NCBI RefSeq assembly: GCF_963921235.1
Contig: NC_086107.1
Location: 115,322,001 to 115,386,000 of the forward strand
Source: Mobula hypostoma
Lineage: Eukaryota
Length of the DNA: 64,000 nt
Reading direction: 5' to 3'
This document shows positions 5,098-33,967 of this stretch, in pieces; position 1 is the stretch's first letter, and each line of letters opens with the position of its first letter. Made by a program: the position numbers and the translations under genes. The notes beneath the pieces are model-generated. The model saw only the letters and a program-made list of their open reading frames with translations. It had not been told where the DNA came from and searched no databases.

Positions 5098-5400
5098 CCA
5101 CACTGCTGACGATTGTGATCCTCTCCCGAGGAAACTGCGGCCTTCCGAAGTGTATTACCGTCTCTATGAAGGCAATGGCAACAGCGGACTTACTGATCAT
5201 GAATATCAATGTAATAATATATCATAACCTAATGCGTCACTTTCCGAATTCATTCTTACCACACACCCTTGCTTGTAGGTTCCTCTTGTACCTAACTTTT
5301 GTTAACTTTGATTTGTCGGTCTGGTTTACAGTTAGCTTCACCTTTGACCGTTTTGTTGCTCTCTGTTTCCAAAAATTCAAAACGAAATATTGCACGAAGA
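5098..5400 (+). pseudogene. GPR139-like class A GPCR exon 2, truncated after TM3/ICL2 by a Penelope-like insertion
   Basis: Polypyrimidine tract plus ttccAG (5096-5097) at the same phase-1 position as the paralogs; encodes TLLTIVILSRGNCGLPKC...AMATADLL...SVWFTVSFTFDRFVALCFQKFKTKYCT; the GPCR sequence does not resume after the insertion; exon 1 not found. Confidence 0.8.
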
Positions 5401-6260
5401 ACAACAGGAATTCTGCAGATGCTGGAAATTCAAGCAACATACATCAAAGTTGCTGGTGAACGCAGCAGGCCAAGCAGCATCTATAGGAAGAGGCGCAGTC
5501 GACGTTTCAGGCCGAGACCCTTCGTCAGGACTAACTGAAGGAAGAGTGAGTAAGGGATTTGAAAGCTGGAGGGAGAGGGGGAGATGCAAAATGATAGGAG
5601 AAGACAGGAGGGGGAGGGATAGAGCCGAGAGCTGGACAGGTGATAGGCAGAAGGGGATACGAGAGGATCATGGGACAGGAGGTCCGGGAAGAAAGACGGG
5701 GGGGGGGTGACCCAGAGGATGGGCAAGAGGTATATTCAGAGGGACAGAGGGAGAAAAAGGAGAGTGAGAGAAAGAATGTGTGCATAAAAATGAGTAACAG
5801 CTGGGGTACGAGGGGGAGGTGGGGCCTAGCGGAAGTTAGAGAAGTCAATGATCATGCCATCAGGTTGGAGGCTACCCAGACGGAATATAAGGTGTTGTTC
5901 CTCCAACCTGAGTGTGGCTTCATCTTTACAGTAGAGGAGGCCGTGGATAGACATGTCAGAATGGGAATGGGATGTGGAATTAAAATGTGCGGCCACTGGG
6001 AGATCCTGCTTTCTCTGGCGGACAGAGCGTAGATGTTCAGCAAAGCGGTCTCCCAGTCTGCGTCGGGTCTCACCAATATATAAAAGGCCACACCGGGAGC
6101 ACCGGACGCAGTATATCACCCCAGTCGACTCACAGGTGAAGTGATGCCTCACCTGGAAGGACTGTTTGGGGCCCTGAATGGTGGTAAGGGAGGAACCCTC
6201 CTGGCACTTATCCGTGTAAGTGGAACAAGTGCTACACATGCCCTTACACTTCCTCCCTCA
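5401..6260 (-). mobile_element. Penelope-like retroelement, 5'-truncated, GIY-YIG endonuclease domain, with inverted 5' segment 6196-6260
   Basis: ORF 5826-6239 has GVIYCVRCSRCGLLYIGETRRRLGDRFAEH (GIY-YIG); 6197-6259 on + encodes PPGTYPCKWNKCYTCPYTSSL. Confidence 0.85.
5497..5532 (-). ncRNA. minimal hammerhead ribozyme (Penelope type)
   Basis: agtc-CTGACGA-agggtctcggcct-GAAAC-GTC-gact: intact core, stem I agtc/gact, stem II hairpin. Confidence 0.7.
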
Positions 6261-7552
6261 TCTATGGCATCCAACTATGGCAGAGTCATCCGAAAATAAT
6301 AATCTAATAATCTAATCTCTTGTAGGACTGAAACATATGATCTTCACTTCCGTTCTCTGACTGATGAAGGCCAGCCTGCCAAAAAGTCTTCTTCACCGCC
6401 CTGTCCTACCGCGATGGAACCACGTACTTACATCTCTAGCTCCATATATTCCAGGGCCTTGCTGCTGATTGCGAATGTCCAATCCTGATTTGTATTCACA
6501 ATATGTAACACCGAGTTGTTATCCAAGCTAAATTCCGTTTGCCATCCTCGGCCCACTTACCACTACTTACTGCCTCTCTATAAATCCAAGCGAGAATCTC
6601 CATTGTCACAGACACCAGAAATGCTAGTGTCATCCTGACCACACCTTTCCATTTTCGTGCAGATCTTTGTTATAGACAACAAATAGCAATGGACCCCTGG
6701 GCACATCAGTAATGACGGACCCCAGTCTGAAAAGCAATCTTCCCTGTACTTTCTGACATAAACCAGCTGAGGATCCAGCTCTCCATTAATCTTACATGAT
6801 CTCATTTTCACTTCAGCCCGCCATGCAGAGCCTTATTAAACGATTTACTGACCCATATCGACCATGTTCTCCACCCCGGCCTTGCCGAACTCTTTAGTTA
6901 CTTCAAAAATATTGAAGCCAATTCATGACAAATAATCTCTAGCGCGCAAGTACGTGGCCTGCTTATGAAAATACTTGTACCTTTTAACCCTTACAACCCC
7001 CTCGAGTCACTCATTCTGCTGTATCTCTCCCTCAGCCGTTGGGACAGCACTAAGCACCTTGTCAGCACGACTGGGCCAGGAAAAACGGACCCAGCGGAGA
7101 GTGCAAATCTGACTTTGGGCCTGGGATTCGTTGGTCATTTAGGAGAGAAGTTAAATCAGGGTGGCAGGGCTGGCCGAAGTGACTCACCAGTTGAGACAAC
7201 GAGGTGCTGACCGCCAAGCCAAACCCAAAGGGAAGATCGCTTATCCGATGGAGAAGTCAAGGAAGTGGCTAGGGTAGTGTGATAATCACATTCAGTGGCA
7301 AGCCCAATTCAGGCAGAAAGAATAGGTGTCTGCACTCCCGGCGACCATTCAGTAACTCGCCGCAGACAGCCAGAATCAGGCGGCAGCCACCCCGCTCTCA
7401 CGGCAGCTGATCAGCGGCTTTCTGACAGGCCAGTCCCGCTCGCAGGATCGGCACCTTTCACATCCTGCTCTCGAACCGTCTCACCAGCCTCAGCCGCTAA
7501 TGCTCCGGTAAAAGTGACAGCTCCCGGACCTGAATCGAGAATTCCTCCGTGA

Positions 7553-7789
7553 TGATGTGTTTTTTTATGGCTTTTACGAGGCGCAGAGCGAGAGAGAGAG
7601 AGACTGTGTAGCGCGCCACTCCTCACACAGTCATTTTTGCACTATTTTCTCTTTAATTTACGAGGTCGAGTTGCGACACTCAACCCGGCACGGATGAAAA
7701 GCGTACTCGGGAGCGGACCCGACTTGTTTCGAACCCGGGAAACTGCGCTCCCGGGTCCGGCGCCGATTTCGTTGCGCCACCAGCCGGCC
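7553..7789 (-). mobile_element. tRNA-derived SINE
   Basis: Minus strand GGCCGGCTGG-TGGCGCAACGA (A box) ... GGTTCGAAAC (B box), (CAT)n tail, TSD cgtga at 7548-7552 and 7790-7794. Confidence 0.7.
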
Positions 7790-8326
7790 CGTGAGATGAC
7801 TTTCCAAGAGCAGCCGGTCGGTTCGCTGATGATGGGTGACAGGTCGCTCTATCCCCGGCCTTGGGTAGCAACGCAATATTTTCACAACCCCCAGTCAACA
7901 TAGACTTAAATTTTTACAATCTTACCATTTGGTGCCATATTTCGCATGGCGGCGTGGAGGGGTGAAAGACCGTAGCGTACAAAACCGCTCCCATACACCA
8001 ACAACCACACATTCACAGTAATTATTTGCCATAACTAATCCGCCAATAACACACACAGACACACACACACATACAGAGAATAACAATGAAGTTTATTAAA
8101 TCTGATGCATAAACGTTTATTTGTTTAATGCTTGCTGTTGGTCCGTTTGTCCGTTCATTTGTATCTGGTTTGGCGGTTCTGGTACGACCTCGGCAAAACC
8201 GAGGCTTTGCTTTCAGGCGGGTGCTATAAATTCTCGAGAGAAACTACACGCCGGCAGCGCGCAGAAGGGACAGATCGTGGACAATTGGGGAAGGGCGGCG
8301 TGGGAGGGCGTGAACAATGGCTGAAA

Positions 8327-9850
8327 TGTACGTAAGAGGTGGAAATAAATACAACAGACGTCATGCGATGGTTTAGAACCTGTTTAGAAATTACGATTTA
8401 TAATTGTATTACGTGGTCGGTAATACTTCCCTTGTGTGTTAATTAATTGAATTTCGCCGAGGTTGTATATACGAGTGAACGGAAAAAGGCCTCAGTGTAT
8501 CCCCTAGAGGTGGTTGGAGATAGATGGTAATTGTAGTAGGTGCCTCTGAACCAAGTTGAGGAAGGAATTGAATATTGGTTATAGTGTTTAAATATATTAT
8601 ATTATATTATACGTATTATATATTAGCTATACTTACATAATGTATAGTTTGTTTGCTGTCTCTTTCCATCACTGTACATATACTTCCACATTTTGTGACC
8701 ATGTGAAAAACTAAATAAAGCTTCTGCACCCGCTATCGCGGCGGAGTCAGTTTTTTTTCCGGGAGAAGTAGCGCCCTTACAAGGCCTTTACATCACAACT
8801 GGCTGACAGAGTGAATTTCTAAGGCGGACCCCAAGTCAGCTTGTTCAACGTTCGATTAGATCAAATTCCCCGTCCAGACCAGTCTTTTCAGCAATTTGTA
8901 GTCGAGTTTGAGAGAGTGTTTAATCTTCCAGTACGGGGTCAGTAGGTTGCCCGCGGATTCCCGGACTTGCGCCCGGGAAAAGGGGCGGCGAGGGACAATG
9001 CAGTAAGGTTCCACGCGCTTGCCGATGAGGCGGGGTTGAACGAGAGATCCCTCATTACTAATTTCCAGTATCGGCTGAGCGCCGTGGTCCGGCGTGAGAT
9101 CTCAGTGCGTGACGAACAGGACAGCCTGGATGTCCTATCAGTCTGGCTATTTGAACAGACAACCGGACAACTGTGTGGCGCAGAGAGGGAATGCCCGGAG
9201 CTTCCTACTCTTTAGATCACCGCCTGTGTTCAGCTTCTCTCTCAACACGCAGTGCACAGTCCGCGAAGGAGCACGTACCGATGGGTCATGAGCAACGACA
9301 GCAGTCTGCTGCCTCTAGTCTGGTCATCCAGGACACTTACAGGCATTATGTCTCAATCGCCCACTAAAAGAGGATAACCGTTAGCAAGAAGAGGAATTTT
9401 GATGGGTCGATTCTCCTTGCAAGCATCTTCTCCTAATCGAAAGACGCTCCCAGCTCCCCCGTCGTCTGGATCACAGACCCACGAGCTTCAAGCATTTCCT
9501 ACTATGGGACCGCCGAGACATTCGTGGACACTCTTCTGGCTCTAAGATGGGGAGCCCCCACTCAGCAACTCAATATTAATGTCAAAGCTCCGGATGGTCG
9601 TCTTCTGGGCACCGGCAGGATCAACCTTTCCGCAGCTCCAGCTTGCGCTAGAAGGCAAACAGGCACCAGCTCCCTTTCTGTCTTGTTGATTCAGTTGAAC
9701 TGCCGCTGGAGCTCGGCTCGGCCTTCCCTGCCTATGCGAAGTCGCCCACGGAAAGGCGCTCCGAGCGACAATCGGCATGTCTGTCCGCCTGACCCGGCAG
9801 CGTTCCAGCTGAATATGTTGATATTCCTGAGGTGTTAATTGAGAAGAAGG
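8327..9850 (+). mobile_element. degenerate Ty3/gypsy-type LTR retrotransposon (possible LTR 8327-8781, gag and protease remnants)
   Basis: DNAVRFHALADEAGLNERSLITNFQYRLS resembles retrotransposon gag; NVKAPDGRLLGTGRI resembles the protease region; TGTA...TTACA segment with aataaa upstream. Confidence 0.5.
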
Positions 9851-9879
9851 CCGCCTTCTTGCGCGCACACTGTGATAGT

Positions 9880-10258
9880 TACTACCCTTCTCCCTTCTCC
9901 CTTTTTCCATTCCTCCATCGGGTTACTTTTTCAGCCGGTCTCTCACCCTCATCTGCCCATCGTCCCACTCTGGTTCCCTTCAGAGTTCCCTTTCTTCCGC
10001 GGTCCTCTCCTATTCGATTACTTCTTGTTCGGCCCTTTACCTCTTCCATTCCCAACTTCTTACTTCATTCAACCACACACCCGCATTCCCCCTCACCTGG
10101 TCTGACATTGTACTTACCATCTTGAAGCCCCCCGCCCACCACCGCATTCTAACTTCAGCCCTCTTCCGTCCTAGTTCTGATGAAGGGTCTCGGCTTGAAA
10201 CCTCGTCGGTTCACTCCCTCCACAGAAGCTGCCTGACTTGTTGAGCTCCCTCAGCACT
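9880..10258 (+). mobile_element. degenerate Penelope-like 3' end
   Basis: Pyrimidine-rich tract followed by CTGATGAagggtctcggcttGAAAC and gctgcctgacttgttgag. Confidence 0.55.
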
Positions 10259-11344
10259 CCGCGTCCTCACGATTATTAATCAATGCCTCTATAACGTGAT
10301 GTAAAATATTTCAAGACTGAGTAATTTATTGCGCTGATGCTGGTCGCACGGAATTTGAGCGGATAAACGCCCGTCCGTAAGAAAACACTACTATTCCTTG
10401 CGTCCGATTGTCATGATGTTGCTCCTATAGTTCACAGGGATTTGATCTGGGACCTCGGCTTTCTAGACTATACGCACAGCACTTGGATGAAGGCAATGCA
10501 GGTCTGGTTGCTGTATTCGCTGACAACATTTCTGATATGTAGGAAAGAAAGCGGCGGAAAAGGGAGACTGTAACACGCAGGAGAAATCTTCGGTCAGTTC
10601 GCGAAGATATGGCAAACTGCAATACGAGAATTGTGAAATATGTATACAAATGAAGCGTAGAATTTAATTATGAATTTTAGATTGCATGTGATCTATTATT
10701 CTGGGTCGTACCGTCATAATTCAGTTACATTGGACGTCTTCCTGAACATGCATTCCTGCATCCATCTCCTCCTCTGAGAAGGGCGCTTTGGCAGAAAATC
10801 AGAGGAGTTATCACGGACAAACTGATGTTCTTTGACACATAACGTAAGAGTGGAGACGCTCGATTTCTACCCGTTGGAGTTTACAAGAGGACAGGATATG
10901 CAGTAACCTGAGGGTCATTGACACAGTGAATAGGAGCAGGGTGAGGGATGAGGGATTTTAAAACTTGAGGTAACAAATAAACGGCAATGCCCCCTTTCCC
11001 AGAGCATTTCGACTCTTTGCGACCTTCCCTCGAAGCAGCGGACAGCAGAAATTTCTTTATCCCAGAAAAAAACTGAGATATCGGCCAGGAAAGCCAGGAC
11101 CAAATGACTAACCGGTTGCCAAGAGTGTTAAGTTGAGCTGACAGTGAGGTGAGACGCAATAGTATTGAGTGAGAAGGCAGCGCCTAGGATGCAGAGCGCA
11201 GCCTAAGACGATCTATTGAATTAGTTCCTCAATATATAGACAACAATGTCACAGAGCCTTTCAGAGTGGACAGCCAGAAACCACGAAAAAAGCCTAAATT
11301 TGCTGAATAACCAAGATTGAACGAAATCAGCTCAACAATGCGAA

Positions 11345-11749
11345 CAGTCATAGTCATAGTCATACCTTATTGATCCCGGGGGAAATTGGTTTTCGTTACA
11401 GTCGCACCATAAATAATAAATAGTAATAAAACCATAAATAGTTAAATAGTAATATGTAAATTATGCCAGGAAGTAAGTCCAGGACCAGCCTATTGGCTCA
11501 GGGTGTCTGACCCTCCAAGGGAGGAGTTGTAAAGTTTGATGGCCACAGGCAGGAATGACTTCCTATGACGCTCTGTGTTGCATCTCGGTGGAATGAGTCT
11601 CTGGCTGAATGTACTCCTGTGCCCACCCAGTACATTATGTAGTGGATGGGAGACATTGTCCAAGATGGCATGCAACTTAGACAGCATCCTCTTTTCAGAC
11701 ACCACCGTGAGAGAGTCCAGTTCCATCCCCACAACATCACTGGCCTTAC
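11345..11749 (-). mobile_element. Rex1/Babar-type LINE 3' fragment
   Basis: Encodes ...LHAILDNVSHPLH...RHRKSFLPVAIKLYN; (CTATGA)n tail; near-identical to 14462-14863. Confidence 0.75.
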
Positions 11750-11773
11750 AACTGAAGAGTATGTTTTGCTGAC

Positions 11774-11997
11774 GTTTGAAACAAAATGACTTTTGCAGGA
11801 GGAACGCCACTCGAATTTTTCATCTCTCTATCTTCCCAGAATTCCAGACTCGAGAATTTCCCAATTAACTGCCTGCACAATCAATACAGTGGGATTTGAC
11901 AGGGCTGTCGTTCTCGGTTTGTGCCTGATTGTAAAATCTCTATTTTTAACACTGCAAAACACCGTCAGTCCCTGTGGAGATCCTAAGCCGTATAAAA
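11774..11997 (+). promoter_or_regulatory. proximal promoter of GPCR gene 2: conserved upstream block, GTCCCTGTGGAGATC (11968-11982), TATA box (11991-11997)
   Basis: Same motifs in the same order and spacing upstream of the paralog at 33745-33967 (-). Confidence 0.7.
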
Positions 11998-12063
11998 ATG
12001 CTGGCATTTTCTGTGCGAAAGGCTCATGCAGAGGGTAATTGAACTCCTCCTTTTGCAGAGAAA

Positions 12064-12130
12064 ATGCTGGAAAGATATTTAAGTGCGGAGAAAATTTTGT
12101 ACGTGATTATTGTTGTCGTTGGAGTTCCCG
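12064..12130 (+). CDS. GPR139-like class A GPCR, exon 1 (MLERYLSAEKILYVIIVVVGVP)
   Basis: ATG at 12064 downstream of TATA; donor G|gtaagt at 12131; homologous to exon 1 of the paralog at 33600-33666. Confidence 0.85.
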
Positions 12131-12570
12131 GTAAGTGTTTAGAACAAACAAAAGTTTATTTTAAAAAATCTGTGTTAAATATTATAAGTTACTAACATAA
12201 ATTACGTTCTAATATACCAATGGCGCGGTTTTCATGGGTCGCCGGACAGCTCGGAAGTCTGACGGAGAGGGGAAGATGCTGTTGTTAAATCTTTGAGCGT
12301 GGTTTTTCAGGCTGCCAGTGACGGTAAGACGGAATATCTCGGGTGGTGGGGAACTTTAGTAATGAATTAAGCTTCCTTGAGTGATAGATACCGGCTGGCG
12401 GCTGCCTGTATTTCATGCCAGCCATTCGCTGCACACACTACTTCTTCTGCCCTGAAGCAGGGCAGGTTGGGCAGATAAGCAGCCACGCACCATTTCCGAT
12501 CTTTAGCCGTGTTCAGACGTAGAGAATGTTTTCACTGATGTCCCTTGTCTGTTCTCTTCTGTTTCTCCAG

Positions 12571-13544
12571 TGAATTTAGTTGCGATTGTGATTCTGTCCC
12601 AGGGAAACTGCGGTCTCGCCACTTGCACCACTCACTACCTCGTGGCCATGGCAGTGGCCGATCTACTGGTCATTATCATTGAGGTCATTTTATTTCAAAT
12701 CAATTATCTTTACTCGCCGTGGTCTTTACTGAACGTCACGCCAGCGTGCAGAGTTATTAATGCACTGACGTTTACATCAAGAAATTGTTCCGTCTGGTTC
12801 ACCGTCACCTTCACCGTTGATCGCTTCATCGCAATTTGTTGCCAAAAGCTGCGGACCAAGTATTGCACCGAGAAAACTGCGGCTACGGTTTTAGCAACAA
12901 CCAGTATTCTGCTCTGTCTGAAAAATGCTCCCTTCTACTTCACATACGAACCCGCAAAGATCATCGACAACGTAACGTGGGGCTGTTCAGTCAAGGACTC
13001 CTATTACACTGACCCAGGGTGGGTGGCGTTTGACTGGTTCAGCAGGGTTCTAACTCCGTTAATCCCTTTCGCCGTAATCCTGCTGCTCAACGCTCTGACG
13101 GTCAGGCGCATCTTAGTGGCCAGTCGAGTCCGCAAAGGGCTGAGGGGTCAGAGCGAGGGGAGGAAACTCGGTGACCCGGAGATGGAGAGCAGGAGGAGGT
13201 CCGTGGTTTTACTCCTCACGCTCTCCTTCAGCTTCATCCTACTATGGCTGACGATTGTGGTAGAGTTCGTCTATTATCAAATCACAGGAAATGCAGCAGG
13301 TCGGAATGATTCGGAAACGATCTTTCATTTTGTTGGCTACATGCTGAGTAACGTTAGCTGCTGCACCAACACGTTCGTTTATGCGGTGACTCAGGCGAAG
13401 TTTAGGGAGCAGGTGACGAACGCGGTGAAATATCCGGTCAACTGTGTGCTGCCGTTTATTATAACGTTGCGCACTAAGCGAATCCCATCAGTTCTGTTGA
13501 TGAACTCGAAAGACTACGGACCGAATCAATTTCGCCTTTCTTGA
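12571..13544 (+). CDS. GPR139-like class A (rhodopsin-like) 7TM GPCR, exon 2; spliced product 346 aa
   Basis: Acceptor ttctccAG at 12569-12570, 440-nt phase-1 intron; GVPVN (TM1), AVADLL (TM2), DRF (TM3), ECL2 Cys, TM7 CTNTFVY, helix 8 KFREQ; no internal stops. Confidence 0.9.
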
Positions 13545-14424
13545 CCGGACAGTATCAATCAGACAACAGTAGCAGTCAGAACTGTGATTGAGGTCCCTGC
13601 AGATTCTTTCATGCAAATCTGAAATGAATCCATGTTTTCTCCGCGAACTTCTATGTAGCGAGGAAGAGTGCGACAATGGTTTCATGCATCTACACCCTCC
13701 CCTCTTTATTTCTCAGCCTGCGTCTGTCGAGGTGCCGCGATTACCTTTGTCACCCTTTTCATTTTCTGTACAACGGCAGCAACCGCACCTGCCGGATTCA
13801 TATAAACGGCAGCTTTCTCTCAGAAGCAATTGTTGCACTTTATGCTCCGCGATTAAATCTTCCGCAGTTGAGCCCTGATAGGCTTCTGTCCTTTAGTCTA
13901 ACGGTAGACTTAACTATGCGCAACTTTTCCATTCAGCACCTGTTGTGATAGAGTGGTTAAGCTATAGGAAATAGATTTTACGGGTCGGTTAAGGAACAAA
14001 ATCGTCAAAGGGATGTAACTGTTCCGGAATCTGATGGTGTGGGACCTCCTGCCGTGAATGAATGCCTCAGCTCGAATGGCGGGTAGCTTTGATGATGGGT
14101 GCTGCTTTTTTCTGGGGGGGGGGGCAGCGCCTTCTGTAGAAACAGCCAGTGGTGGGGAGGGATCCGATGTGCCCGTGATGCACTGAGCTACACTCTTCAG
14201 TATCTCACGTTCCACTACAATCGAATTTTATTTTATTTTCTCATAATACAGGGTGGAGTATTCCCTTCGAGCCACGTCACGAAACCCCCGACGATCCCGA
14301 TTAACTCTAACTTAATCATGTAACAACTTACAACGGCCGATCAAACTGCCAGTGCGTCTTTAGACCGTGGAATGAAGCCGGAGCTCCCGGAAATTTTACC
14401 CCACAATGACGCAGTCAGTCCGCA

Positions 14425-14863
14425 CCCGGGAATTGTACCAACAGAATCAACAAACTCATTCGTAAGGCCAGTGATGTTGTGGGGATGGAACTGGACTCTC
14501 TCACGGTGGTGTCTGAAAAGAGGATGCTGTCTAAGTTGCATGCCATCTTGGACAATGTCTCCCATCCACTACATAATGTACTGGGTGGGCACAGGAGTAC
14601 ATTCAGCCAGAGACTCATTCCACCGAGATGCAACACAGAGTGTCATAGGAAGTCATTCCTGCCTGTGGCCATCAAACTTTATAACTCCTCCCTTGGAGGG
14701 TCAGACACCCTGCGCCAATAGGCTGGTCCTGCACTTATTCCCTGGCATAATTTAGATATTACTATTTAATATTTTTGGTTTTATTACTATTTAATTATTT
14801 ATGGTGCAACTGTAACGAAAACCAATTTCCCCCGGAATCAATAGAGTATGACTATGACTATGA
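14425..14863 (+). mobile_element. Rex1/Babar-type LINE 3' fragment
   Basis: Same C-terminal peptide and (CTATGA)n tail as 11345-11749; 19-bp TSD atgacgcagtc(a/g)gtccgca at 14406-14424 and 14860-14878. Confidence 0.8.
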
Positions 14864-15725
14864 CGCAGTCGGTCCGCATTCTTAAAGGCAGGAACTAGGA
14901 ACAGTTAAGTGGGAATAGCTGTAGTTGGGCAAGTCTATGCGTTACATGTGCAGGTTATTGAAAGACAAACTGCACACAATACAATAGAATATGTTCCAAA
15001 ACAATAGCAATGACAAGGATGACGAGGTAAGGGAAGTTTGAATGCCGAAAGAGGTAGTGAATATAGTCGTAGTGTAATAGGTTACAACAGTACTGACGCA
15101 GGACGTTCGGCCCACTTAGTCCGTTCCAACCTGTGCACTCCCAGTCCCATCTGCCTATTACCTGACCATAGCCCTCCACGCCCTTCTGATTCTTGTATCT
15201 TTCGACACTTCTCCAAATTTTGCAATTAACTCCGCATCCGCCACTTCCACTGGCAGCTTATTCTACAATCGCATCACTCTCGGAGTTAAGAAGATTCCCC
15301 TCAGAGCCCACTCAAATATTTCGCTCTTCACCCTGAACCTATGACGTCTAATTCTCGCCCGATCCAGTCTCTGGCGGAGAAGCCTCCGTGTATTTAGCAC
15401 GTGTTGCTGCAGCCAAACCAAACCAAACCAAAACCAAAACATGAACAATTCCTGCTCCCGGCGACACCACGGATTGGTTATACCTGCATAATAGCCCTCA
15501 CTCAATAATGACTGCTCCAAAAGTCCGTGATATCTATATCAATCCTGATTAACAATTAGCAAGCGAACAATCTTGGCGCAATGAAATGTAAGCGTATCGT
15601 ACTGTAAGCTAAGCGTAATTAAGCTTTATATTCCGACATTGAGTGTTAGCAAAGGATATGAAACCCGCCGATCCCAAACTACAAACTGCCTAGAACAAAG
15701 CATGAATATTTATTTAAAATATTTA

Positions 15726-15985
15726 TTTAAAAGACCCAGCACTGCCTCTTTTGTTCTCCCAAAAATGCCGAAAAATATTTGAGTGATTCGTAATTATCTT
15801 ACTATTGCCTACGTCATTCCTCCTCATTAAGTACTGATGCAAAGCAGCCTTCACGATATTATTTTATATAAACTTATTTCCTTCGCTTTTACAACGGCCT
15901 CACTGACTAGCTACCATAATGAACATTTATAAACGCGCAACACAGAATGCAATGCAGATAAACGATAGCCGCTTGGCTCCTATAC

Positions 15986-16033
<48 letters not shown>

Positions 16034-16429
16034 CATCTACATATATATACACCCCACAAGAAAAAAGGAACTCGAGGTAAGGTTTTGGAATTTTAAATCC
16101 AAGGAGCCCTTAAAGATTATAAATAAGCTAGAAAATACTGTTTATCAAAAAGGGAATCAGAACAGCCAGAGGGTACCTGTAAAGTTGTTGACAACCCGAA
16201 TTAAATAAAATCAAAATTAATTCCATACATATAGCAAGAACAAACACAGAGCTAGCGATAGAGGGTAGGATAAAGCATGTGCTTGGAGATGGACAAAGTC
16301 CCGAAGACTGCTTTGCATCAGCACTTAATGAGGAGGAATGACGTAGGCAATAGTAAGATAATTGCGAATCACTCAAATACGTTTCGGCATTTTTGGGATA
16401 ACAAAAGAGGCAGTGCTGGGCCTTTTAAA
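15726..16429. repeat. inverted repeat with arms of about 127 bp (15726-15852 and 16303-16429) around a (CA)n/(TA)n microsatellite
   Basis: Arms are reverse complements with only a handful of mismatches. Confidence 0.8.
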
Positions 16430-17089
16430 GAATATTAAGGTGGAGTGATCCACAGCGGCTAATGGGGTATACCCCAGGCGATTGAGAGATGCAAGGTATC
16501 ATTTTGCTGCAGCTTTGACCAAATTCTTCTTTTCTGCTCTAGCTGCAGGTGAGAACTCAAAGGACGAACGAGTATTCAGTTTTATATTACAGTATTCAAG
16601 AATAGAAATAGGGATGAGCCTGAAATGTATAGACTGGTCAACGGCGAGGATGTCACTGGAGAGGATTTTTAGAGGTACAGAGATCTAAGCCCATGGACTA
16701 ATTAGGGCACTCGAGATGGCTTACTAACTGGATCGTGTTACTTTGTTGAAGTGAATGATGTTTACGCGCCCGGTGTGAGGGTGATACTGGAACTAGAGCA
16801 TGTAGACTAGCGAACATAGTAGAGAAACAAAAACCGATTGTAGTAAAAAGTAGCAGGCGATCTGCATGTATTAATTACAAACAAGAGAAAATCTGCAGAC
16901 GCTGAAAATCCGAGCAACACACACAAAATTCCGGAGGAACTCTGATAGTAGTATAAATTTACTGACACTCTCCACCTACGTTTCTGTGATAAGGGTTTGC
17001 TCATGAACCTCCGGGTTCTTCCTCCTGCAGTCATTAACCAACTCTTTGGTTTTGCTAACGCAGAGTGAAAATACGTTGTCCTGGCATCA

Positions 17090-18780: not shown

Positions 18781-19789
18781 CTGGACCCATTTCCACCAGT
18801 CTGGCAGACAAATAACTGACAGTTCGCATCATTTCAAAATTACTGGAAAGTTCCCAATGTCCCCACTCTCATTCTAAATTTCGCGCATACGCATCTCGTG
18901 CAAGTTACTGATCGCCATATCTCGTCGCTCACTGTTTATTGGAATGTTTCCAGGACCCGGGTGCCGAAATTACATGGAGAGGTTTCCTTACAAGGAACGC
19001 ATGAGATTGAAGGGTGACCTAACAGAGCTGTGTAAGGTCAAGAGGGCAAAGGAGAGAAAGTGTATAGCTTTTTTTCCCAATAAGGAGATTGCTGAATCAA
19101 AAGGGCATTGAAATAATATCGGTGTCGAGAAGTTTAAATGCGGCATCTTCAGACAAAGTGCGTTGCGCATTAGGAATGAGATGACAAAAATAATGGGTGA
19201 GGCATCTAGAGAACACATAGACAGGAGAGGGACATTCCCAAACGTGACAGATGAGACTAGCTTGCTGTGCAAAACACAATTGAGACAGACCAGTTGAGCC
19301 GAAGTGTCTGTTTCCAAGCGTGGTGGCTCTAGGAATGTAAACCTCCCAGACTCGGGTTATGAGTGGTACTAATTCTCTGAAATGATATCCTTCAAAGTGT
19401 TTACTTCAAAGGCAAGCTGTTACCTTGTCCCTCATTTCTTAAAGCAACTTTCTTAAACTTACTGATTGAATCGGAGCCACACTGCAATGATTCAGCACTT
19501 AGCCTCTGGACGTCAGAACGAGAACACGACAGGTGGAAAAGGTGAGTGTGTTTTCACAGCCGAGAAGAAAACTGGTCTCCTGCATCGAGAGAAAGTGACT
19601 GACTCCGCGCAGAGAGAGCAGCGGGAGGAGTAATCAGCAGAGGCACGATGAGGATTGATTGAGATATTTAATGAAATTCATTTCCGATAGAGGGTGCTCT
19701 CAACTCCTGTTCAACACTGGAAATCCTGTCATCATATATGTGCAGGGGAAATGACCGCAGAATCTCTTAAGATGAAAATGAAAGTTATG

Positions 19790-20915: not shown

Positions 20916-23517
20916 ATCACAGCTAAGGGGATTGTCCGGTTGATTGGCCTGCCCTTGTTCCCGTGTTGACCAGCCTCATGATTCCACGTCACAGCACTGG
21001 GGTTTTCACTGTACCCATTTCAGACTACTTGTGTGCCAGTATCAGGGCCAAAATTTACCCTGCACCACAGGGTGACCTTTGAGCTGGAGAGGAAGCATCT
21101 GATGGCACGGGGGGTGGGGGTGGGGAGGGGGGTGCTTGGTCGGGTTCCTGCTCTACTGAGGGATTTTAACCTCGTAGGTGGTTCTTATCATCGTTGTACG
21201 TGTGGGAAAGTTTGTCAGCTCAAGGAAACAGATTCTGAATCTTTAGTACACACAACTAAATATCTGTTATGCAGAACTTGCAAAGTAAATTCATGTAATC
21301 TGCTCCCACAATTTCCCTTTTATATCTCTTATATTTCATACTTTCCCCCATCCACTGAATTTGCTCATCACTGACACAGTCCCCTCACTTGTCCTTTTCC
21401 CCATTGTACTCTGCGATCCTAACCACTACCCTTACTTAGTTCCAAGCTCCAAGCTCCTGTCCTATCAGATTGCATCATCTGCAGTAGTTTGTCACCTCCA
21501 GCTGTCACAGCACAGATTCTGTCCCTACTTGCAATTTTACACCTTCCACCTGCATATCATCTCTCCTCATCTGGATCCACCCATCCCCTGCCAGCCCTTC
21601 CTTCATATCTTCTCTCCACCACTTTATGCTGCCTACCTCCCTCGATTTTCCGTCGAAGCGAAACGTAGATAGGCCAATTCCTCCCACAACACTGACTGGA
21701 CAAAGGTTCCTCCTGTGGCTCGTGCTTTCCTCAACAGAATACATGTATCACACATTTCTAAATCGGAATAGAAGGTGCACCGAAAAGAGTTACCAGGATG
21801 TTGATTGGATCTGGGAGCCTCGGTTACGAGGAGAAGTTGGACAGAATAGGACTGGAAAGTCCCTGGAAAGCATGAAATTGAGTTGACTCGAGACCACTGC
21901 TGTGCAGCAGTACTGAAGAGGAGGGATCATCCCAGTGAATAATGAGGAGGAAAGCACACTCTTCCACACCTTTCCTCATTCTTACGTCATCGGCTACGTA
22001 ATGGGACCCTCCGTCATGTCCTCCGACCACCCTACAGGGCGTATCCACGGTTTCAACGATTCTCTCATTGATGGTCTGCCACCTCTCATGAAGGTCGCGC
22101 AAAATCTAGGCAATAACTCTTTCAAGGTCTAGCGAGCGGCATCTCAGAGCAGGTCTGCAGAGAGGCCTGTGGGGGGAAGATGCGCAGCCCTCAGAAGTAG
22201 AATAAGACACACTATCAGGGTAGCAATCTCATGATTACTGCCCGTGGCAGGCGACAGTGAGTATAGGAATAGAGTGAGGTGGGGATAAATGAGTGGCTGA
22301 GAGACTGACGCAGGGGGCAGGGATTCAGATTTCTGGATCATTGGGACCTCTTTTGGGGCAGGCGTGACCTGTGCATTAAGGATGATTTGCACTTGAATCC
22401 GAGGTGGATCAATATCCTGGCAATGAGATTTGCAAAGGCTACTGGGGAGAGTTTAAACTAGAATTGCTGGGGGGTGGGAACAGAACTGAACAGACGGAGG
22501 AAGGGGCGGTTGGCTCATAAATAGAGAAAGATTGTAGGCAGTGTGAGAGGGAGGATAGGCAAGTACATAGAACATAGAGTATAGAAAACCTACAGCACAA
22601 TACAGGCCCTTCGGCCCACAAAGCTGTGCCGAACATGTCCTTACCTTAGAAATTACCTAGGGTTACCTATAGCCCTCTATTTTTCTAAGTTCCATGTACC
22701 TGTCCAGGAGTCTCTTAAAAGACCCTATTGTATCTGCCTCCACCACCGTTGCCGGCAGCCCATTCCATGCACTCACTACTCTCTGCGTAAAAAACTTACC
22801 TCTGACATCTCCTCTGTACCTACTTCCAAGCACCTTAAAACTATGCCCTCTCATGCTAGCCATTTCAGCCCTGGGAAAAAGCCTCTGACTATCCACATGA
22901 TCAATGCCTCTCATCATCTTATACACCTCTATCAGGCCACCTCTCACCCTCCATCACTCCAAGGAGAAAAGGCCGAGATCACGTAACCTATTCTCATAAG
23001 GCATGCTCCCCAATCCAGGCAACATCCTTGTAAATCTCCTCTGCACCTATAGTTTCCACATCCTTCCTGTAGTGAGGCGACCAGAATTGAGCACAGTACT
23101 CCAAATGGGGTCTGACCAGGGTCCAATATAGCTGCAACATTACCTCTCGGCTCTTAAACTCAATCCCACGATTGATGAAAGCCAATGCACCGTATGCCTT
23201 CTTAACCACAGAGTGAACCTGCGCAGCATCTTTTAGTGTCCTATGGACTCGGACCTTAAGATCCCTCTGATCCTCCACACTGCTGAGAGTCTTACCATTA
23301 ATACTATATTCTGCTATCATATTTGACCTACCAAAGTGAACCACCTCAAACTTATCTGGGTTGAACTCCGTCTGCCACTTCTCAGCCCAGTTTTGCATCC
23401 TATCAATGTCCCGCTGTAACCTCTGACTGGCCTCCACACTATCCACAACAACCCCAACCTTTGTGTCATCAGCAAAGGTACTAACCCATCCCTCCGCTTC
23501 CTCATCCAGGTCATTTA

Positions 23518-24605
23518 TGTCATAAGGGGGGCGTTGGGAGCGGACCCAAAGACAAGACACTGACACCGAAGTACTAGGAACTGGACTGGACTAGAGTTAG
23601 GGACGGGACAGGACACAGACTAGGAGCTGGGACAGGAACACAGACTTGGGCTAGGACTTTGGCAAGGAAAGCGAGACCAGGACAAGGAACTGGGAACTAG
23701 GAGCCTGGGCTTGGACTCCGAGTAGAGACTGGACAAGGACCCAAAACCTGGGTCTTGACTCAGGCTCGGACCCTGGAACTAGGCGAGGACATGACTTAGC
23801 TACAGGACTGGACATGGCTTAGGTTCTTCGAGGCTTGGCTACAGGACTAGACGACGCTTGGGTTCTTCGACGAGGGAATTCCTGGACAGGACGAGGGCAC
23901 CCCAGCACAGGGCTAGGCGAGGTACTCCTGGGCTGGGCGAGGCACATGGACAGGACGAGAACACGAAGCCTTGACTCGATCTTGGGACACCTGAACACGG
24001 AACCTTGCCCTAGGGAGATTGGAACACAGAGGCTTGGACGTGGGGGACTGAAACACAGAGCCTTGGTCTTGGGAGAGACAGGAACACAGAGACATGGAAC
24101 ACAGAGCCGGGAACCCTCCTTGGGAACAGGACTTGGGGCCGGGGCTCTACACAGAGACAGGATCCCTCCTAGGGAGCAGGACGTAGGGCCGGGACTCGTA
24201 CACAGAACACTGAGAGATAGTTCTGCACTCAAGGTAGCGGCTAACGGCTGGACCTACCCAGCAGAGGCGAGGACACAAAGAGACATTTCCAAACAACGAT
24301 AGACAGTTCCTTATCTTGACACAGCAGGGCTCCGATCTTGCTCTGGCAGTAGAACTTGACAGTGATAAAGGGGAGGACGCAGGCGAAGTTGCAGGCAAGG
24401 CTTCAGGCAAAGGTTGCAGGCAAGGCTTCAGAGGGAAGGGAACAGTCCAGCCGCCATAGTCTGAATCCTGAAGCTATTTATGAAGCCAGCCCAAACGAGA
24501 ATCAGATGCCTCAACGGAAACCGGGGGAAACGGGAAAACCTGGAATAAGGAACAATGGACCGGACCGTGAACCGGAATGCGGACTTCACGGACCGGACCA
24601 TGACA
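23518..24605. mobile_element. solo LTR (1088 bp) with internal short tandem repeats
   Basis: TGTCAT...ATGACA termini, perfect 5-bp TSD attta (23513-23517 and 24606-24610); splits the CR1 RT codons exactly. Confidence 0.85.
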
Positions 24606-24742: not shown

Positions 24743-25118
24743 TGGTTACGTTTGGCTGTTCCTCTTTAACCCTCCTTTCTCCCTGATTATGCCCTAATTT
24801 CAGTCATTAGATATCCAATTGCTGCTACACCTAATCACACTACGCCTGGTTTTCATCAGAGACTGTGAAATCAGTACGATGGCTTCTCTTTCTCAGGTTG
24901 CCAGTTTGTTGGTTTATTCTCGTGTGATACCTCGTTCTCTTGTCCGCTTAGAACCGTTAGTTCTAAGTTTAGTTCCAAGTTCTGCTCTAGTTTCAAGATA
25001 GTCCCTGTAGATCCCGTCTCCTTGTCAACATTCCTCCGGTTTGCTGTTCTATGTACACGTCTCCGCCTGCATCCCCAACTCAGTCGACTTGGGTTCTCCT
25101 CAGTCGCCCCGTGCAACA
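24743..25118. mobile_element. probable solo LTR nested in CR1
   Basis: Non-CR1 sequence between contiguous CR1 RT segments; degenerate (T)GTTACG...CGTGCAACA ends; TSD unclear. Confidence 0.5.
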
Positions 25119-27059
25119 CCATGTCCCCTTGGATCCCATGCCTCCTTACTTTCTCACTAAGCCTTGCATGGGGTACCTTATCAAATGCCTTGCTGAAATC
25201 CATATACACTACATCTACTGCTCTAACTTCATCAATGTGTTTAGTCACATGCTCAAAAATTTCAACCAGGCTCGTAAGGCATGACCTGCCCTTGACAAAG
25301 CTATGCTGACTGTTCCTAATTATATTATGCTTCTCCAAATGTTCATAAATCCTGCCTCTCAGGATCTTCTCCATCAACTTACCAACCACTGAAGTAAGAC
25401 TCACTGGTCTATAATTTCCCGGGCTATCTCTACTCCCTTTCTTGAATAAAGGAGCAACATCCGCAACCCTCCAATCCTCCAGAACCTTTCCCGTCCCCAT
25501 TGATGATGCAAAGATAATCGCCAGAGGCTCAGCAATCTCCCCCCCTCACCTCATACGGTAGCCTGGGGTACATGTCGTCCGGTTCTGGTGACTTATCTAA
25601 CTTAAGGTGATAGAGAAAGGACGCGCTCAGACCAGTGGTTTGAGAAGTGTCTATTTTAATACAAGGAATGTTATGAACAAAGCGGATGAGCTTAGAGCGT
25701 GGATCAGTACTTGGAGCTATGATGTTGTGGCCATTCCAGAGACTTGGATGGCTCAGGGGCAGGAATGGTTACTTAGAGTGCTAGGCTTTAGAAGTTTCAG
25801 AAAGGACAGGGAGGTGGGTAATACAGGTGGGGGCGTGGCACTGCCTATCAGAGATAGTGTCACAGCTGCAGAGAAGGTGGAAGTCATGGAGGAACTGTCT
25901 ACTGAGTCTCCGTGGGTGGAAGTTCGAAACAGGAAGGGGTCAATAACTCTACTGGATGTTTTTTATAGACCACCCAACAGTAACAGGGACATCGAGGAGC
26001 AGACAGGAAGGCAGATTCTGGAATGGTGCAATAATAACAGGGTTGTTGTGATGGGGGATTTTAATTCCCTCGATATTGATTGGCATCTCCCTCGAGCAAA
26101 GGGTTTAGATGGGGTAGAGTTTGGTAGGTGTGTTCAGAAAGATTTTCTGACACAATATGTAGATAAGCCTACAAGAGGAAAGGCTGTACTTGATCTGGTA
26201 TTGGGAAATGAACCTGGTCAGGAGAGCATTTTGGAGATAGTGATCACATTTCTATCTCCTTTACCATAGCATTGGAGAGGGATAGGAGCAGACAAGTTAG
26301 GAAAGCGTTTAATTGGAGTAAAGGGAAATATGAAGCTATCAGGCAGGAACTTGGGGAGCAGATGTTCTCAGGGAAATGTACAGCAGAAATGTGGCAAATG
26401 TTCTGGGGATATTCGCCTGGCATTCTGTATAGGTACGTTCCAATGAGACGGCGAAAGGAGTAGAGTACAGGAACCAGGGTGTACAAAATCTAGTCATGAA
26501 GAAAAGAAAAGCTTACGAATGGTTGAAAAAACTAGGTGATGATAGAGATCTAGAAGATTATAAAGCTAGTAGGAAGGAGCCTAGGAATGAAATTTGGAGA
26601 GCCAGAAGGGGCCATGAGAAGGCCTTGGAGAGCAGGATTAAGGAAAACTCCAAGGCGTTCTACAAGTAAGTGAAGAGCAAGAGGATAAGATGTGAGAAAA
26701 TAGGACCAATCAAGATTGACAGTGGAGAAGTGTGTATGGAACCGCAGGAGGTAGCGGAGGTACTTAATTAATACTTTGCTCTAGTATTCACTACAGAAAA
26801 GGACCTTGGCGATTATAATGATGATTTAAAGCGGACTGAACAGCTTGAGCATGTAGATATTAAAAAAGAGGATGTGCTGGATCTTTTGGAAAGCATCAAG
26901 TTGGATAAGTCACCAAGACCAGACGAGATATACCCCAGGCTACTGTGGGAGGGGAAGGAGGAGATTTATGAGCCTCCGGCAAAATGATCTTTGGATCATC
27001 AATGGGGAATGGAGAGGTTCCGGAGGATTGGAGGGTTGCTGATGTACAACAAACATTGA

Positions 27060-27062
<3 letters not shown>

Positions 27063-27125
<63 letters not shown>
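27063..27125. repeat. (CT)n(CA)n microsatellite
   Basis: Direct inspection. Confidence 0.95.
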
Positions 27126-33381: not shown

Positions 33382-33560
33382 CACAAAATGCTGGAGGAAC
33401 TCAGCAGTCCAGGCAGCATCTAGGAAAAGATTGCCGAAGGGTTTCGACGCCAAACGCCCACTGTACTTTTTTTTCCGAGATACTGCCTGGCCTGCTGATT
33501 TCCTCCAGCATTTTGTGTGTCTTGCTCGGATTCCCAGCATCTACAGATCTTCTCCTGTTT
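33382..33560. repeat. palindromic Penelope-derived element (47-bp inverted arms) in intron
   Basis: 33382-33428 versus 33471-33517: 43/47 complementary. Confidence 0.75.
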
Positions 33561-33599
33561 ATGATTAGATAGTAATCATGAACTGCTCTGCTCACTTAC

Positions 33600-33666
33600 C
33601 AGGAGCTCCAATGGCGGCAGTGATTGACTACAATATTTTCTCTACGCTGATATATCCTTCAAGCAT
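33600..33666 (-). pseudogene. GPR139-like GPCR gene 3, exon 1 (MLEGYISVEKIL*SITAAIGAP) with premature TAG
   Basis: ATG at 33666, donor G|gtaagt at 33599, same 67-nt length as gene 2 exon 1; TAG at 33630-33628 where the paralog has TAC. Confidence 0.85.
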
Positions 33667-33744
33667 TTTCTCTGCCCGGCGATGCGTCCCCCTCTGCTAC
33701 GGACGATCTGTCGGAATAAATTTTGAGTGAGAACGATCCTGGGG

Positions 33745-33967
33745 TTTTATACCATTTAACGATCTCCACAGGGACAGATTTCAACAGAGCTAAAATATAT
33801 AAAACAATAGAAACTAATTGTTTCAGTCAAATGAATACTCCGGGGGGACAGATTGTAATTAATTCGCTGAATTTATTATCAAACTCCAAACAATGGAAAT
33901 TGTGACAGTACTGAGAGATGTAAATTGGAAGCGACGCTCTTCCAGCAAAACGAATATTGTTTCAAAC
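33745..33967 (-). promoter_or_regulatory. proximal promoter of GPCR gene 3: TATA (33751-33745), GTCCCTGTGGAGATC (33775-33761), upstream conserved block
   Basis: Homologous to 11774-11997. Confidence 0.7.

Follow-up and report, generated by a model that had tools for sequence, protein, structure and literature searches.

The three receptor loci that we analysed belong to a family of about 700-1000 loci in the genome of Mobula hypostoma, lying mostly in tandem arrays, and the family is confined to cartilaginous fishes (sharks, rays and a chimaera). We hold with moderate confidence that this large class A family constitutes a chemosensory-type repertoire under birth and death, in which different copies would read many different ligands and all would feed one common intracellular partner. 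The window, by which we mean the whole 64,000-nt stretch of DNA under analysis, holds peripheral members, or outliers, of this very large family.

A sequence-only reading of the window had proposed three paralogous 7TM loci between positions 5098 and 33967, one intact, one nonsense-mutated and one truncated, and we confirmed this arrangement (Table 1). The phase-1 splice acceptor that it placed inside TM1 was present at all three loci, falling within the codon that precedes the TM1 Asn position, DRF was found in all three and NTFVY in genes 2 and 3, and every conserved or divergent peptide stretch that it quoted could be located in the open reading frames of the window. A family HMM run in six frames detected no further family pieces in the window beyond these three loci. 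Both the window and the family arrays are rich in retroelements.

Table 1. Features of the three receptor loci and the adjoining repeat, in window positions.
Feature	Position	Strand	Remarks
Gene 1, exon 2 fragment	5098-5405	+	second half of TM1 to ICL2, including DRF; ends at about 5405
Transposon-like, highly repeated sequence	5406-6257		adjoins the truncated end of gene 1
GIY-YIG open reading frame in that repeat	5826-6257	-	Pfam GIY-YIG, E 4.5e-5
Gene 2, upstream element GTCCCTGTGGAG	11968-11979	+	exact match in the window; kept among paralogues
Gene 2, TATA-like box TATAAAA	11991-11997	+	67-73 nt 5' of the ATG; read from the sequence
Gene 2, exon 1	12064-12130	+	67 nt from the ATG, 22 codons and one further base; encodes the short N-terminus and TM1 up to its middle
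Gene 2, intron	12131-12570	+	GT..AG, phase 1; GT at 12131, acceptor AG at 12569-12570
Gene 2, exon 2	12571-13544	+	intact, TM1 Asn through stop codon
Gene 3, conserved upstream element	33775-33764	-	counterpart of the gene 2 element
Gene 3, TATA-like box	33751-33745	-	
Gene 3, exon 1	33666-33600	-	in-frame TAG at 33630-33628, codon 13
Gene 3, intron	33599-32348	-	phase 1, acceptor AG at 32349-32348; holds repeat-like sequence
Gene 3, exon 2	32347-31458	-	open frame

Joining the two exons of gene 2, the intact locus, yielded the predicted 346-aa product, and the hydrophobic run appears to begin near residue 11 of exon 1, in keeping with the proposed N-terminus of about 10 aa as read from the genomic frame rather than from a transcript. 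Pfam 7tm_1 matched gene 2 with an E value of 5.8e-22, and an AlphaFold2 model (mean pLDDT 87.4, pTM 0.80) predicted the expected helices. The top Foldseek matches of this predicted fold were class A receptors throughout; against the PDB the comparison was non-discriminating, with generic peptide receptors ranking first and GPR139 at rank 43. Sequencing runs, possibly not RNA, covered mostly repeats over window positions 4001-24000. Depth over gene 2 was 0-13, derived in part from a conserved stretch common to paralogues, and no contig from these runs of uncertain RNA nature bridged the gene 2 intron within that interval. Three short-contig proteins (P0006, P0031 and P0091) were rejected as transcripts, being exon-2-only and reading through the intron end.

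Gene 3 is a recent nonsense pseudogene. Its TAG at codon 13 stands where gene 2 and the aligned paralogues carry Tyr (TAC), and it retains 64% identity to gene 2 and a Pfam 7tm_1 match with an E value of 1.4e-14. Gene 1 is an old truncated fragment, which we count as a pseudogene. Its exon begins directly after a phase-1 acceptor AG at 5096-5097 and was aligned by tblastn to residues 19-134 of gene 2 with 49% identity; the family HMM matched only profile positions 20-125, identity to the sampled paralogues reached at most 59%, and the Pfam 7tm_1 match (E 1.9e-4) fell under the curated cut-off. The TM1 Asn position is Thr in gene 1, and neither the remainder of the gene, its exon 1 nor a promoter element was found within the window. 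Where the fragment ends, the repeat begins: run depth exceeded 100,000 in the bin 5335-6001 versus 371-2357 in the bin before it, 4668-5334, where most of the gene 1 fragment lies, and joints at 5427-5433 connect to 16912-16916.

The size of the family emerged from protein and motif searches. A search of the animal's own genome with the gene 2 protein returned 1968 first-look candidates, and within the scored subset of 117 all matches had E values of at most 2.8e-104, with the 116 besides gene 2 itself being 52-68% identical to it. We also searched degenerate motif patterns genome-wide, using the reversed pattern as control each time. The TM3 pattern WFTV.F..DRF matched exactly at 354 places versus 0 for the control and, with up to two mismatches, at 1047 versus 90, while DPEMES..RR gave 204 matches versus 4 and CCTNTF.Y gave 165 versus 0. 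A copy number of the order of 10^3 is thus far from the few copies genome-wide that would have spoken against the repertoire idea of the sequence-only reading. Some copies on small scaffolds are identical or nearly so, and uncollapsed haplotypes may thus have raised the locus count; several hundred members are probably open genes. The gene plan is compact, consisting of a TATA-type promoter with the upstream element, a 67-nt coding exon 1, a single intron and exon 2, and exon-1-like matches were detected upstream of exon 2 at 17 of 30 paralogous loci.

Decay is widespread in these arrays. Exon 2 was open and full in 65 of the 91 sampled loci and disrupted in 26, with open copies making up 53 of 61 in the top-scoring list versus 12 of 30 in divergent arrays, where the other 18 were disrupted. 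Together with the variation on the ligand side described below, the copy number and the disrupted fraction bear out the proposal of a lineage-expanded repertoire under birth and death. The same decay, the two dead loci among the three in the window and the retroelement-rich surroundings of the arrays could also be read as mostly non-functional amplification, that is, as tandem or repeat-driven arrays of decaying copies with no organismal function. We consider this very improbable, since omega is about 0.3 with purifying selection at many codons, the key activation residues are invariant, the two-exon structure, splice sites and promoter element are conserved, and sharks, rays and a chimaera have subfamilies in common.

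These constraints were quantified on the 62 intact sampled copies, which fall into 44 groups at 90% identity. Among the 44 non-redundant copies R3.50, W6.48, N7.49 and Y7.53 were each present in all 44 and D2.50 in 43, P5.50 was kept across the family, and position 3.51 was F in 39. Position 6.50 was T in 28 copies, V in 7 and P in 7, and position 7.50 was T in 42 and S in 2; loss of both P6.50 and P7.50 is unusual in signalling receptors. The cytoplasmic half had an entropy of 0.77 bits and an omega of 0.28, the extracellular half 1.76 bits and 0.49. At 24 generic pocket positions, a class A set taken from general knowledge and placed through sequence anchors rather than coordinates, entropy was 2.02 bits versus 1.53 at 62 other outer-helix positions (one-sided Mann-Whitney p = 0.0046). 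The cytoplasmic face and activation core are thus almost invariant, the extracellular half and the pocket differ from copy to copy, and the ligand-side variability that had been noted from the window loci extends to the family.

Pairwise dN/dS had a median of 0.33 (1381 of 1891 pairs, with 0.03 < dS < 1.5), and purifying selection was significant at 134 of 300 codons. The site-wise dN/dS check suggested with the initial reading returned no positively selected site: a crude parsimony counting test on the 62 copies found significant dN > dS (p < 0.05) at 0 of 300 codons, and pervasive positive selection was dropped as an explanation. Because no codon had significant dN > dS, the variability on the ligand side could reflect a loosening of constraint instead of selection favouring new specificities.

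We then considered the relation of the family to GPR139. GPR139 and its close relative GPR142 are class A orphan receptors that are activated by L-Trp and L-Phe, and the family might consist of ordinary GPR139/GPR142 orthologues or recent local duplicates sensing aromatic amino acids. Among solved structures, human GPR139 matched best by sequence (E 1.8e-10), by a small margin over the CCK-B receptor (1.3e-8), and public annotation names most members 'probable G-protein coupled receptor 139'. GPR139 and the family also agree in a TM7 N-x-x-x-Y without the proline (NFFLY in GPR139, NTF(I/V)Y in the family) and, as far as the GPR139 of this ray is concerned, in a phase-1 intron one codon before N1.50. 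However, this genome carries a true GPR139 at another place (locus L051, G000:C36, about 121.98 Mb), which excludes GPR139 orthology for the family. Its acceptor, as read from the sequence, has the same phase and position as those of genes 1-3, whereas its identity to gene 2 is 23%, it falls outside the family in two trees, and it is one locus versus about 10^3. Further differences are DRF in the family versus DRY in GPR139 and the loss of P6.50 in most copies. A second locus with a one-mismatch TM3 motif, L052, had no long open reading frame that we could find.

The residues that bind aromatic amino acids in GPR139 are, in the available part of PMC5430874, F3.33, H5.43, W6.48, R6.51 and N7.38. 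When these were compared with the family through sequence-anchored positions, W6.48 was kept in 44 of 44 copies and 3.33 was F or Y in 26 of 44; position 5.43 was T in 24 of 44, position 6.51 varied (Y, L, N, F, K, V and others, with R absent from the eight commonest residues), and position 7.38 was G in 40 of 44. With H5.43, R6.51 and N7.38, which mutagenesis had defined in GPR139, replaced in the family, the earlier suggestion that the receptors sense amino acids or peptides finds no support. The separate GPR139 locus, the trees and the replaced ligand residues together refute orthology with GPR139/GPR142, to which we give almost no credence, and the name 'probable GPR139' is misleading and invites a wrong transfer of function.

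In the careful tree, which had 43 rows (GPR142 was absent from the trees), the family formed one clade with support of 99/91. Its sister was a clade of amphibian and sturgeon proteins (100/100), with joint support of 99/99. These sister proteins, likewise called 'probable GPR139' (Pleurodeles XP_069092602 and Xenopus tropicalis among them), are 32-33% identical to family members and comprise one entry per species (20 amphibian protein entries and one from sturgeon) versus the hundreds of copies found here. The trees further resolved a ray-only clade of 47 rows alongside subfamilies common to sharks and rays, some of them including a chimaera. All named proteins among the best 120 matches came from a shark, ray or skate, and the named family-range clusters that we looked up did so too, except one from Callorhinchus milii. 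The family arose when one ancient gene, distantly paralogous to GPR139 and with the phase-1 intron in common, was duplicated again and again.

By analogy with established chemoreceptors, we take the family to serve most probably in outward-facing chemosensation, in the nose or in chemosensory cells of another kind. Like the OR, TAAR, V1R/ORA and T2R families, it is large, arranged in tandem arrays, rich in pseudogenes and marked by lineage-specific expansions, and its intracellular face is conserved while its pocket varies. It differs from them in having no specific sequence relationship to any, and the coding sequences of OR, TAAR, V1R and T2R genes are generally intronless, unlike those of this intron-split family. 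Pfam 7tm_1 alone reached significance and none of the OR, V1R or T2R families matched at E <= 0.01, and the core inference of the sequence-only reading, a repertoire distinct from OR, TAAR, V1R and V2R, was supported in this respect. A protein atlas look-up returned generic class A clusters only.

The ligands could instead be internal or host-associated (neuropeptide-like, immune, microbial-metabolite or reproductive), with the receptors expressed in cells of the brain, immune system, gut or gonad instead of chemosensory organs. The solved structures closest in sequence or fold, those of GPR139 and the CCK, neurotensin and ghrelin receptors, belong to brain or peptide receptors, published abstracts describe true GPR139 as a brain receptor, and some family members carry chemokine-like, capa-like or vasopressin-like names. 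These names, however, are automatic best-hit labels, and a set of about 10^3 loci, rich in pseudogenes and diverse on the ligand side, fits repertoires for external cues better. We know of no vertebrate receptor family with hundreds of members in internal signalling, and we judge such a role unlikely. One published observation on its side comes from catshark, where, according to the available part of PMC11979771, the 50 genes most specific to a brain-plus-olfactory library include no GPCR, which is a weak test for a diluted repertoire.

Within the chemosensory reading, a more specific proposal, which we advance tentatively and with considerable doubt, is that sharks, rays and chimaeras have in this family their main, hitherto missing, odorant-receptor repertoire. 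Receptors derived from GPR139 would then be expressed in their hundreds, one or a few per neuron of the olfactory epithelium, under the control of the conserved promoter element and coupled to one common partner through the invariant cytoplasmic face. Published surveys, as far as their available parts extend, place cartilaginous fishes lowest in vertebrate chemoreceptor counts: 20-62 complete olfactory-type genes were found across 10 cartilaginous-fish species (PMC10869828, in part), a paucity of GPCRs in these fishes has been described (PMC8455134, in part), and the shark nose has been called one reduced to a de facto vomeronasal organ (PMC10116579, in part). A family of about a thousand loci, probably with several hundred open genes, is at odds with this picture of few chemoreceptors. 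We found no description of the expansion in the literature searched outside subscription journals, and the available part of a GPR139 review (PMC12208981) makes no mention of sharks, cartilaginous fishes, paralogues, duplication or copies.

Its resemblance to known repertoires suggests that the family is a large and hitherto undescribed array of chemical sensors, and its members are concrete candidates for chemical sensing in sharks, rays and chimaeras. If the odorant proposal were true, the chemoreceptor repertoire of cartilaginous fishes would rank among the larger ones of vertebrates instead of being the smallest, and it would have evolved independently from another class A ancestor. Even if the receptors were non-olfactory, we know of no vertebrate GPCR expansion beyond the established chemoreceptor families that would exceed this one in size, and the family would offer a natural receptor library with one intracellular face in common and without the TM6 and TM7 prolines.

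The upstream element was kept in 14 of 15 aligned paralogue upstream regions and was present as a variant in the fifteenth, and an A/T-rich box lies in the paralogues at the same place as the TATA-like box of gene 2. This conservation is found although the synonymous sites of the paralogues are saturated. A 23-nt version of the element matched 21 places in the genome versus 0 for the control; given that it matches only these 21 places, the pattern in this form is characteristic of a subfamily, not of the family at large. The element is one mismatch away from the EBF/Olf-1 palindrome.

The three receptor loci of the window belong to a very large family in the Mobula hypostoma genome. Searching the proteins of this genome with gene 2, the intact locus, yielded 1968 first-look candidates, 117 of which were scored; all 117 had E <= 2.8e-104, the 116 besides gene 2 itself were 52-68% identical to it, and 90 contained no stop inside the match. 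We also counted matches to degenerate DNA patterns for conserved peptide motifs, each against a reversed-pattern control: DPEMES..RR gave 204 matches versus 4, CCTNTF.Y 165 versus 0, and WFTV.F..DRF 354 versus 0 when exact and 1047 versus 90 with up to two mismatches. This last excess suggests approximately 950 loci with a recognizable TM3, a figure that rests on motif patterns and the partly scored candidate search rather than a curated census, and that may be inflated by uncollapsed haplotypes, since part of the sample consists of identical or near-identical copies on small scaffolds. Matches lie in tandem arrays, for example on contigs C96 (5.3-7.4 Mb), C18 (113.4-114.0 Mb), C22 (151.9-152.1 Mb) and C80 (17.1-17.3 and 23.2-24.0 Mb); the window trio is a small outlying group, with another motif match 1.6 Mb off on the same contig.

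Decay was assessed in a non-random sample of 91 loci (30 from the protein search, 60 retrieved by coordinates, plus gene 3). Exon 2 was complete and open in 65 and disrupted in 26 (13 stops, 8 frameshifts, 5 partial), and a stricter criterion left 62 of the same 91 intact. Intact loci numbered 53 of 61 in the top-scoring set, where good copies are overrepresented, and 12 of 30 in the motif-match set from divergent arrays. Collectively, the estimated copy number, the tandem arrays and the disrupted fraction bear out the proposal, made in the sequence-only reading, of a lineage-expanded, decaying repertoire related to GPR139. The 62 intact copies collapsed to 44 groups at 90% identity. Among identical or near-identical sampled loci, the pairs L030/L069 and L068/L075 are separated by 13-300 kb on contig C96 (49.6 Mb), and the groups L012/L013/L007 and L002/L003/L004 lie partly on small scaffolds (C198, C121, C141); such copies would be either very recent duplicates or, on small scaffolds, uncollapsed haplotypes.

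Stop-to-stop open reading frames and tblastn with the spliced gene 2 product identified three related receptor loci and no others in the window; scanning its six frames with a family HMM yielded no further family pieces. The motifs reported earlier (DRF, NTFVY, and the conserved and divergent stretches) were all recovered in these frames. The acceptors of genes 1-3 are all phase 1, within the codon preceding the TM1 Asn position. Codon 13 of gene 3 is TAG (33630-33628) and reads TAC in gene 2 and aligned paralogues, with the remainder of gene 3 open. Homology in gene 1 stops where highly repeated sequence starts, the repeat being marked by sequencing-run depth and by joints at 5427-5433. The neighboring GIY-YIG frame is itself very highly repeated in sequencing runs, and looks like part of a Penelope-type element; similar sequence recurs near 4000-4200 (window 4031-4417).

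Receptor loci and mobile-element frames of the window, with the GPR139 orthologue of the same genome
Feature	Position	Strand	Remarks
Gene 1	from 5098, homology to ~5405	+	mid-TM1 to ICL2 only
GIY-YIG ORF	5826-6257	-	Pfam E 4.5e-5; adjoins truncated end of gene 1
Gene 2 coding exon 1	12064-12130	+	67 nt
Gene 2 intron	12131-12570	+	GT..AG
Gene 2 exon 2	12571-13544	+	joined with exon 1, 346 aa
LINE fragment	19782-20816	+	Pfam RVT_1 and Exo_endo_phos among the four fragments
LINE fragment	22994-23590	-
LINE fragment	24871-25545	-
LINE fragment	25601-26269	+
Gene 3 exon 2	32347-31458	-	open
Gene 3 intron	33599-32348	-
Gene 3 exon 1	33666-33600	-	structure as in gene 2
Endonuclease and reverse-transcriptase frame	53676-56411	-	open, 911 aa; in 35453-64000 tandem repeat
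Upstream retroelement ORF	56396-57421	-	341 aa; in 35453-64000 tandem repeat
L051	G000:C36:121984434-121987465		true GPR139 orthologue of the genome

Compared with solved structures, gene 2 matched human GPR139 best (E 1.8e-10), followed by the CCK-B (1.3e-8) and neurotensin (2.7e-7) receptors. A degenerate pattern for the GPR139 TM3 motif had one exact match in the genome, at locus L051 (contig C36, ~121.98 Mb), whose exon 2 frame almost matches human GPR139 in sequence; its identity to gene 2 is 23%. At L051 a polypyrimidine tract and AG give a phase-1 acceptor one codon before N1.50, exactly as in genes 1-3, and the TM7 proline is also missing in GPR139, human and L051 alike (NFFLY). Given the shared intron position, the missing proline and a separate GPR139 at L051, sequence evidence indicates that the family and GPR139 have a common ancestry, yet that the family is not the GPR139 orthologue. 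According to PMC5430874, mutagenesis assigns the GPR139 ligand site to F3.33, H5.43, W6.48 and N7.38, with R6.51 and E3.32 as its polar part. The family retains only W6.48. Of 44 non-redundant copies, 26 have F or Y at 3.33, 24 have T at 5.43, 40 have G at 7.38 and 22 have R or K at 3.32; 6.51 is one of the positions that vary most (3.14 bits). Since the remainder of this site is not kept, the label of amino-acid sensor, which had been raised as a possibility, cannot pass from GPR139 to the family. Ordinary GPR139 orthology is contradicted by these replacements, by the separate locus and its 23% identity, and by trees that place GPR139 outside the family, and we consider it virtually dismissed.

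The family is restricted to cartilaginous fishes in the protein collections searched. A word-indexed search gave 1772 proteins at E <= 1e-3; among the best 120 of these, all named proteins came from sharks, rays and skates, three were unnamed, and most were labelled 'probable' or 'putative G-protein coupled receptor 139'. An exhaustive search of 50%-identity representatives matched 1625 clusters at E <= 1e-3, of which 112 reached E <= 1e-30, and the sources of thirty clusters were looked up by name. Ten divergent members (39-47% identical to gene 2) came from sharks, rays and skates, except the unnamed P0182; of nine further members, eight were from sharks, rays or skates and one, P0141 (51% identical), from the chimaera Callorhinchus milii. 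P0182, a family member of 300 aa with 40% identity to gene 2, lies on a 1664-nt JGI/IMG metagenome contig and presumably derives from cartilaginous-fish DNA in the sampled environment.

Outside the family, the nearest clusters, all labelled GPR139, were from a salamander (P0227, 32%), coelacanth (P0232, 30%) and teleost (P0233, 34%). P0232 and another cluster, P0263, were rejected as true GPR139, with E-values against the human protein of 1.8e-18 and 2.1e-15. P0227 had a single listed relative per entry in 20 amphibian entries (identity 66-100%) and another in sturgeon (46%), with the cartilaginous-fish family next at 32-33%. P0227, the 19 further amphibian entries (frogs, salamanders, a caecilian) and the sturgeon entry P0311 are all named 'probable GPR139', one listed per species.

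In a carefully built 43-row maximum-likelihood tree, with two unrelated class A receptors from this genome as the root, the family formed one clade (ultrafast bootstrap 99, SH-aLRT 91). Its sister was the amphibian and sturgeon clade (100/100; joint support 99/99), the coelacanth and teleost clade came next, and the genome's own GPR139 fell outside. A quick 87-row tree had left a lone newt sequence and the family in an unresolved basal fork, which adding the amphibian relatives resolved. These trees indicate that the family descends from a GPR139 paralogue with a single listed copy per species among the amphibian and sturgeon entries examined, and that this amphibian and sturgeon gene is, by its placement, not GPR139 but a sister of the family and a conserved receptor in its own right. 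Shark and ray sequences were joined in some subfamilies (for example one of the genome's own copies with a zebra shark protein, 100/99), a ray-only clade took up 47 of the 87 rows of the quick tree, and the chimaera protein was nested inside the family with moderate support (SH-aLRT 91). On this branching pattern, diversification began early in cartilaginous fishes and expansion continued lineage by lineage.

A confident AlphaFold2 model of the exon 2 product, built from a 63-row alignment, showed the expected helices (mean pLDDT 87.4, pTM 0.80), and we used its helix limits together with the anchors D2.50, R3.50, P5.50, W6.48 and N7.49 to split the receptor into extracellular and cytoplasmic halves. 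Mean entropy across the 44 copies of this genome was 1.76 bits in the extracellular versus 0.77 in the cytoplasmic half; omega was 0.49 versus 0.28 when pooled over 26 sister or near-neighbor pairs and 0.52 versus 0.29 in a tree-based count. At 24 positions that are common ligand contacts in class A receptors, placed by sequence anchors and not from model coordinates, entropy was 2.02 bits, compared with 1.53 at the 62 remaining outer-helix positions (p = 0.0046). D2.50 is retained in 43 of the 44 copies and R3.50, P5.50, W6.48, N7.49 and Y7.53 in all; 39 copies have F at 3.51. At 6.50, 28 copies have T, 7 have V and 7 have P; at 7.50, 42 have T and the other 2 have S.

Overall dN/dS was 0.33, and a simple counting method found significant purifying selection at 134 of 300 codons and significant dN > dS at none. 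In a few young pairs extracellular omega was near or above 1 (for example 1.62, 1.52, 0.96 and 0.93), values that few changes underlie, and cytoplasmic omega was low or not estimable, with one exception (0.69). A fair summary of these comparisons is that the genes are functional, that their signalling side is strongly conserved and their ligand side far freer to vary, and that positive selection is not demonstrated. Of the variability earlier proposed for the ligand side, the higher entropy and omega of the extracellular half and the higher entropy of the pocket positions stood; positively selected codons did not appear. Selfish or non-functional amplification is contradicted by the purifying selection and the other data given here, and we judge it very improbable. 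Different copies would bind different ligands, with one intracellular partner common to all.

To our knowledge, every vertebrate GPCR family of such size and dynamics is chemosensory. By this analogy a chemosensory-type role is somewhat favored for the family, with a role in the nose perhaps half as probable. The main rival, a repertoire for internal or host-associated ligands, seems unlikely.

The sequences are not new, as the genes are already in public annotation under the GPR139 name; what appears not to have been described before is that they form a separate, giant family. No description of the expansion turned up in full-text searches of openly accessible literature. The strings shark, cartilaginous, paralog, duplicat and copies are all absent from a 2025 GPR139 review (PMC12208981), and 'GPR139' is absent from the text of a catshark sensory paper (PMC11979771), which describes small olfactory repertoires. 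A vertebrate-wide chemoreceptor survey (PMC10869828) reports 20-62 complete olfactory-type genes in cartilaginous fishes, and a whale shark paper (PMC8455134) notes a relative paucity of GPCRs.

Exon 1, the promoter and the GPR139-locus acceptor are predictions read from DNA. Of 30 loci taken with 1.5 kb of flank, 17 had an exon-1-like match before exon 2, in some cases with a weak E-value. Alignment of 15 upstream regions (14 loci and gene 3, ~9 independent lineages) revealed a conserved block, TGTTGAA-N4-GTCCC-N-GTGGAG, located 83-110 nt before the ATG and ~10-15 nt before an A/T-rich TATA-like box. Its core was present in 14 regions, the fifteenth (locus L008) carrying TTCCCATTGGGAAT, and mean column identity across nine lineages was 0.93 in the core versus 0.58 far upstream. 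The 23-nt form had 21 genome matches versus 0 in the control, on family-gene contigs and several at family-gene positions. A second A/T-rich block (ATTAAT..AATTAA..CTGTCAC), resembling a homeodomain site, lies ~120 nt upstream of the TCCC..GGAG element and ~230 nt before the ATG (loci L001-L025). A single mismatch separates the core from the EBF/Olf-1 palindrome TTCCCNNGGGAAT, in the form printed in PMC2394523; because so loose a match is common by chance, we treat this resemblance as a lead, not a finding.

The surroundings of the window receptor genes are repeat-rich and gene-poor apart from the receptors, with LINE reverse transcriptase and endonuclease fragments between genes 2 and 3. Positions 35453-64000 are a tandem array of at least 2.6 units that repeat every ~11.0-11.4 kb at 95-100% identity. 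Every unit contains retroelement frames, and GC skew is strongly negative where these frames lie, at 42-46 kb and 54-58 kb.
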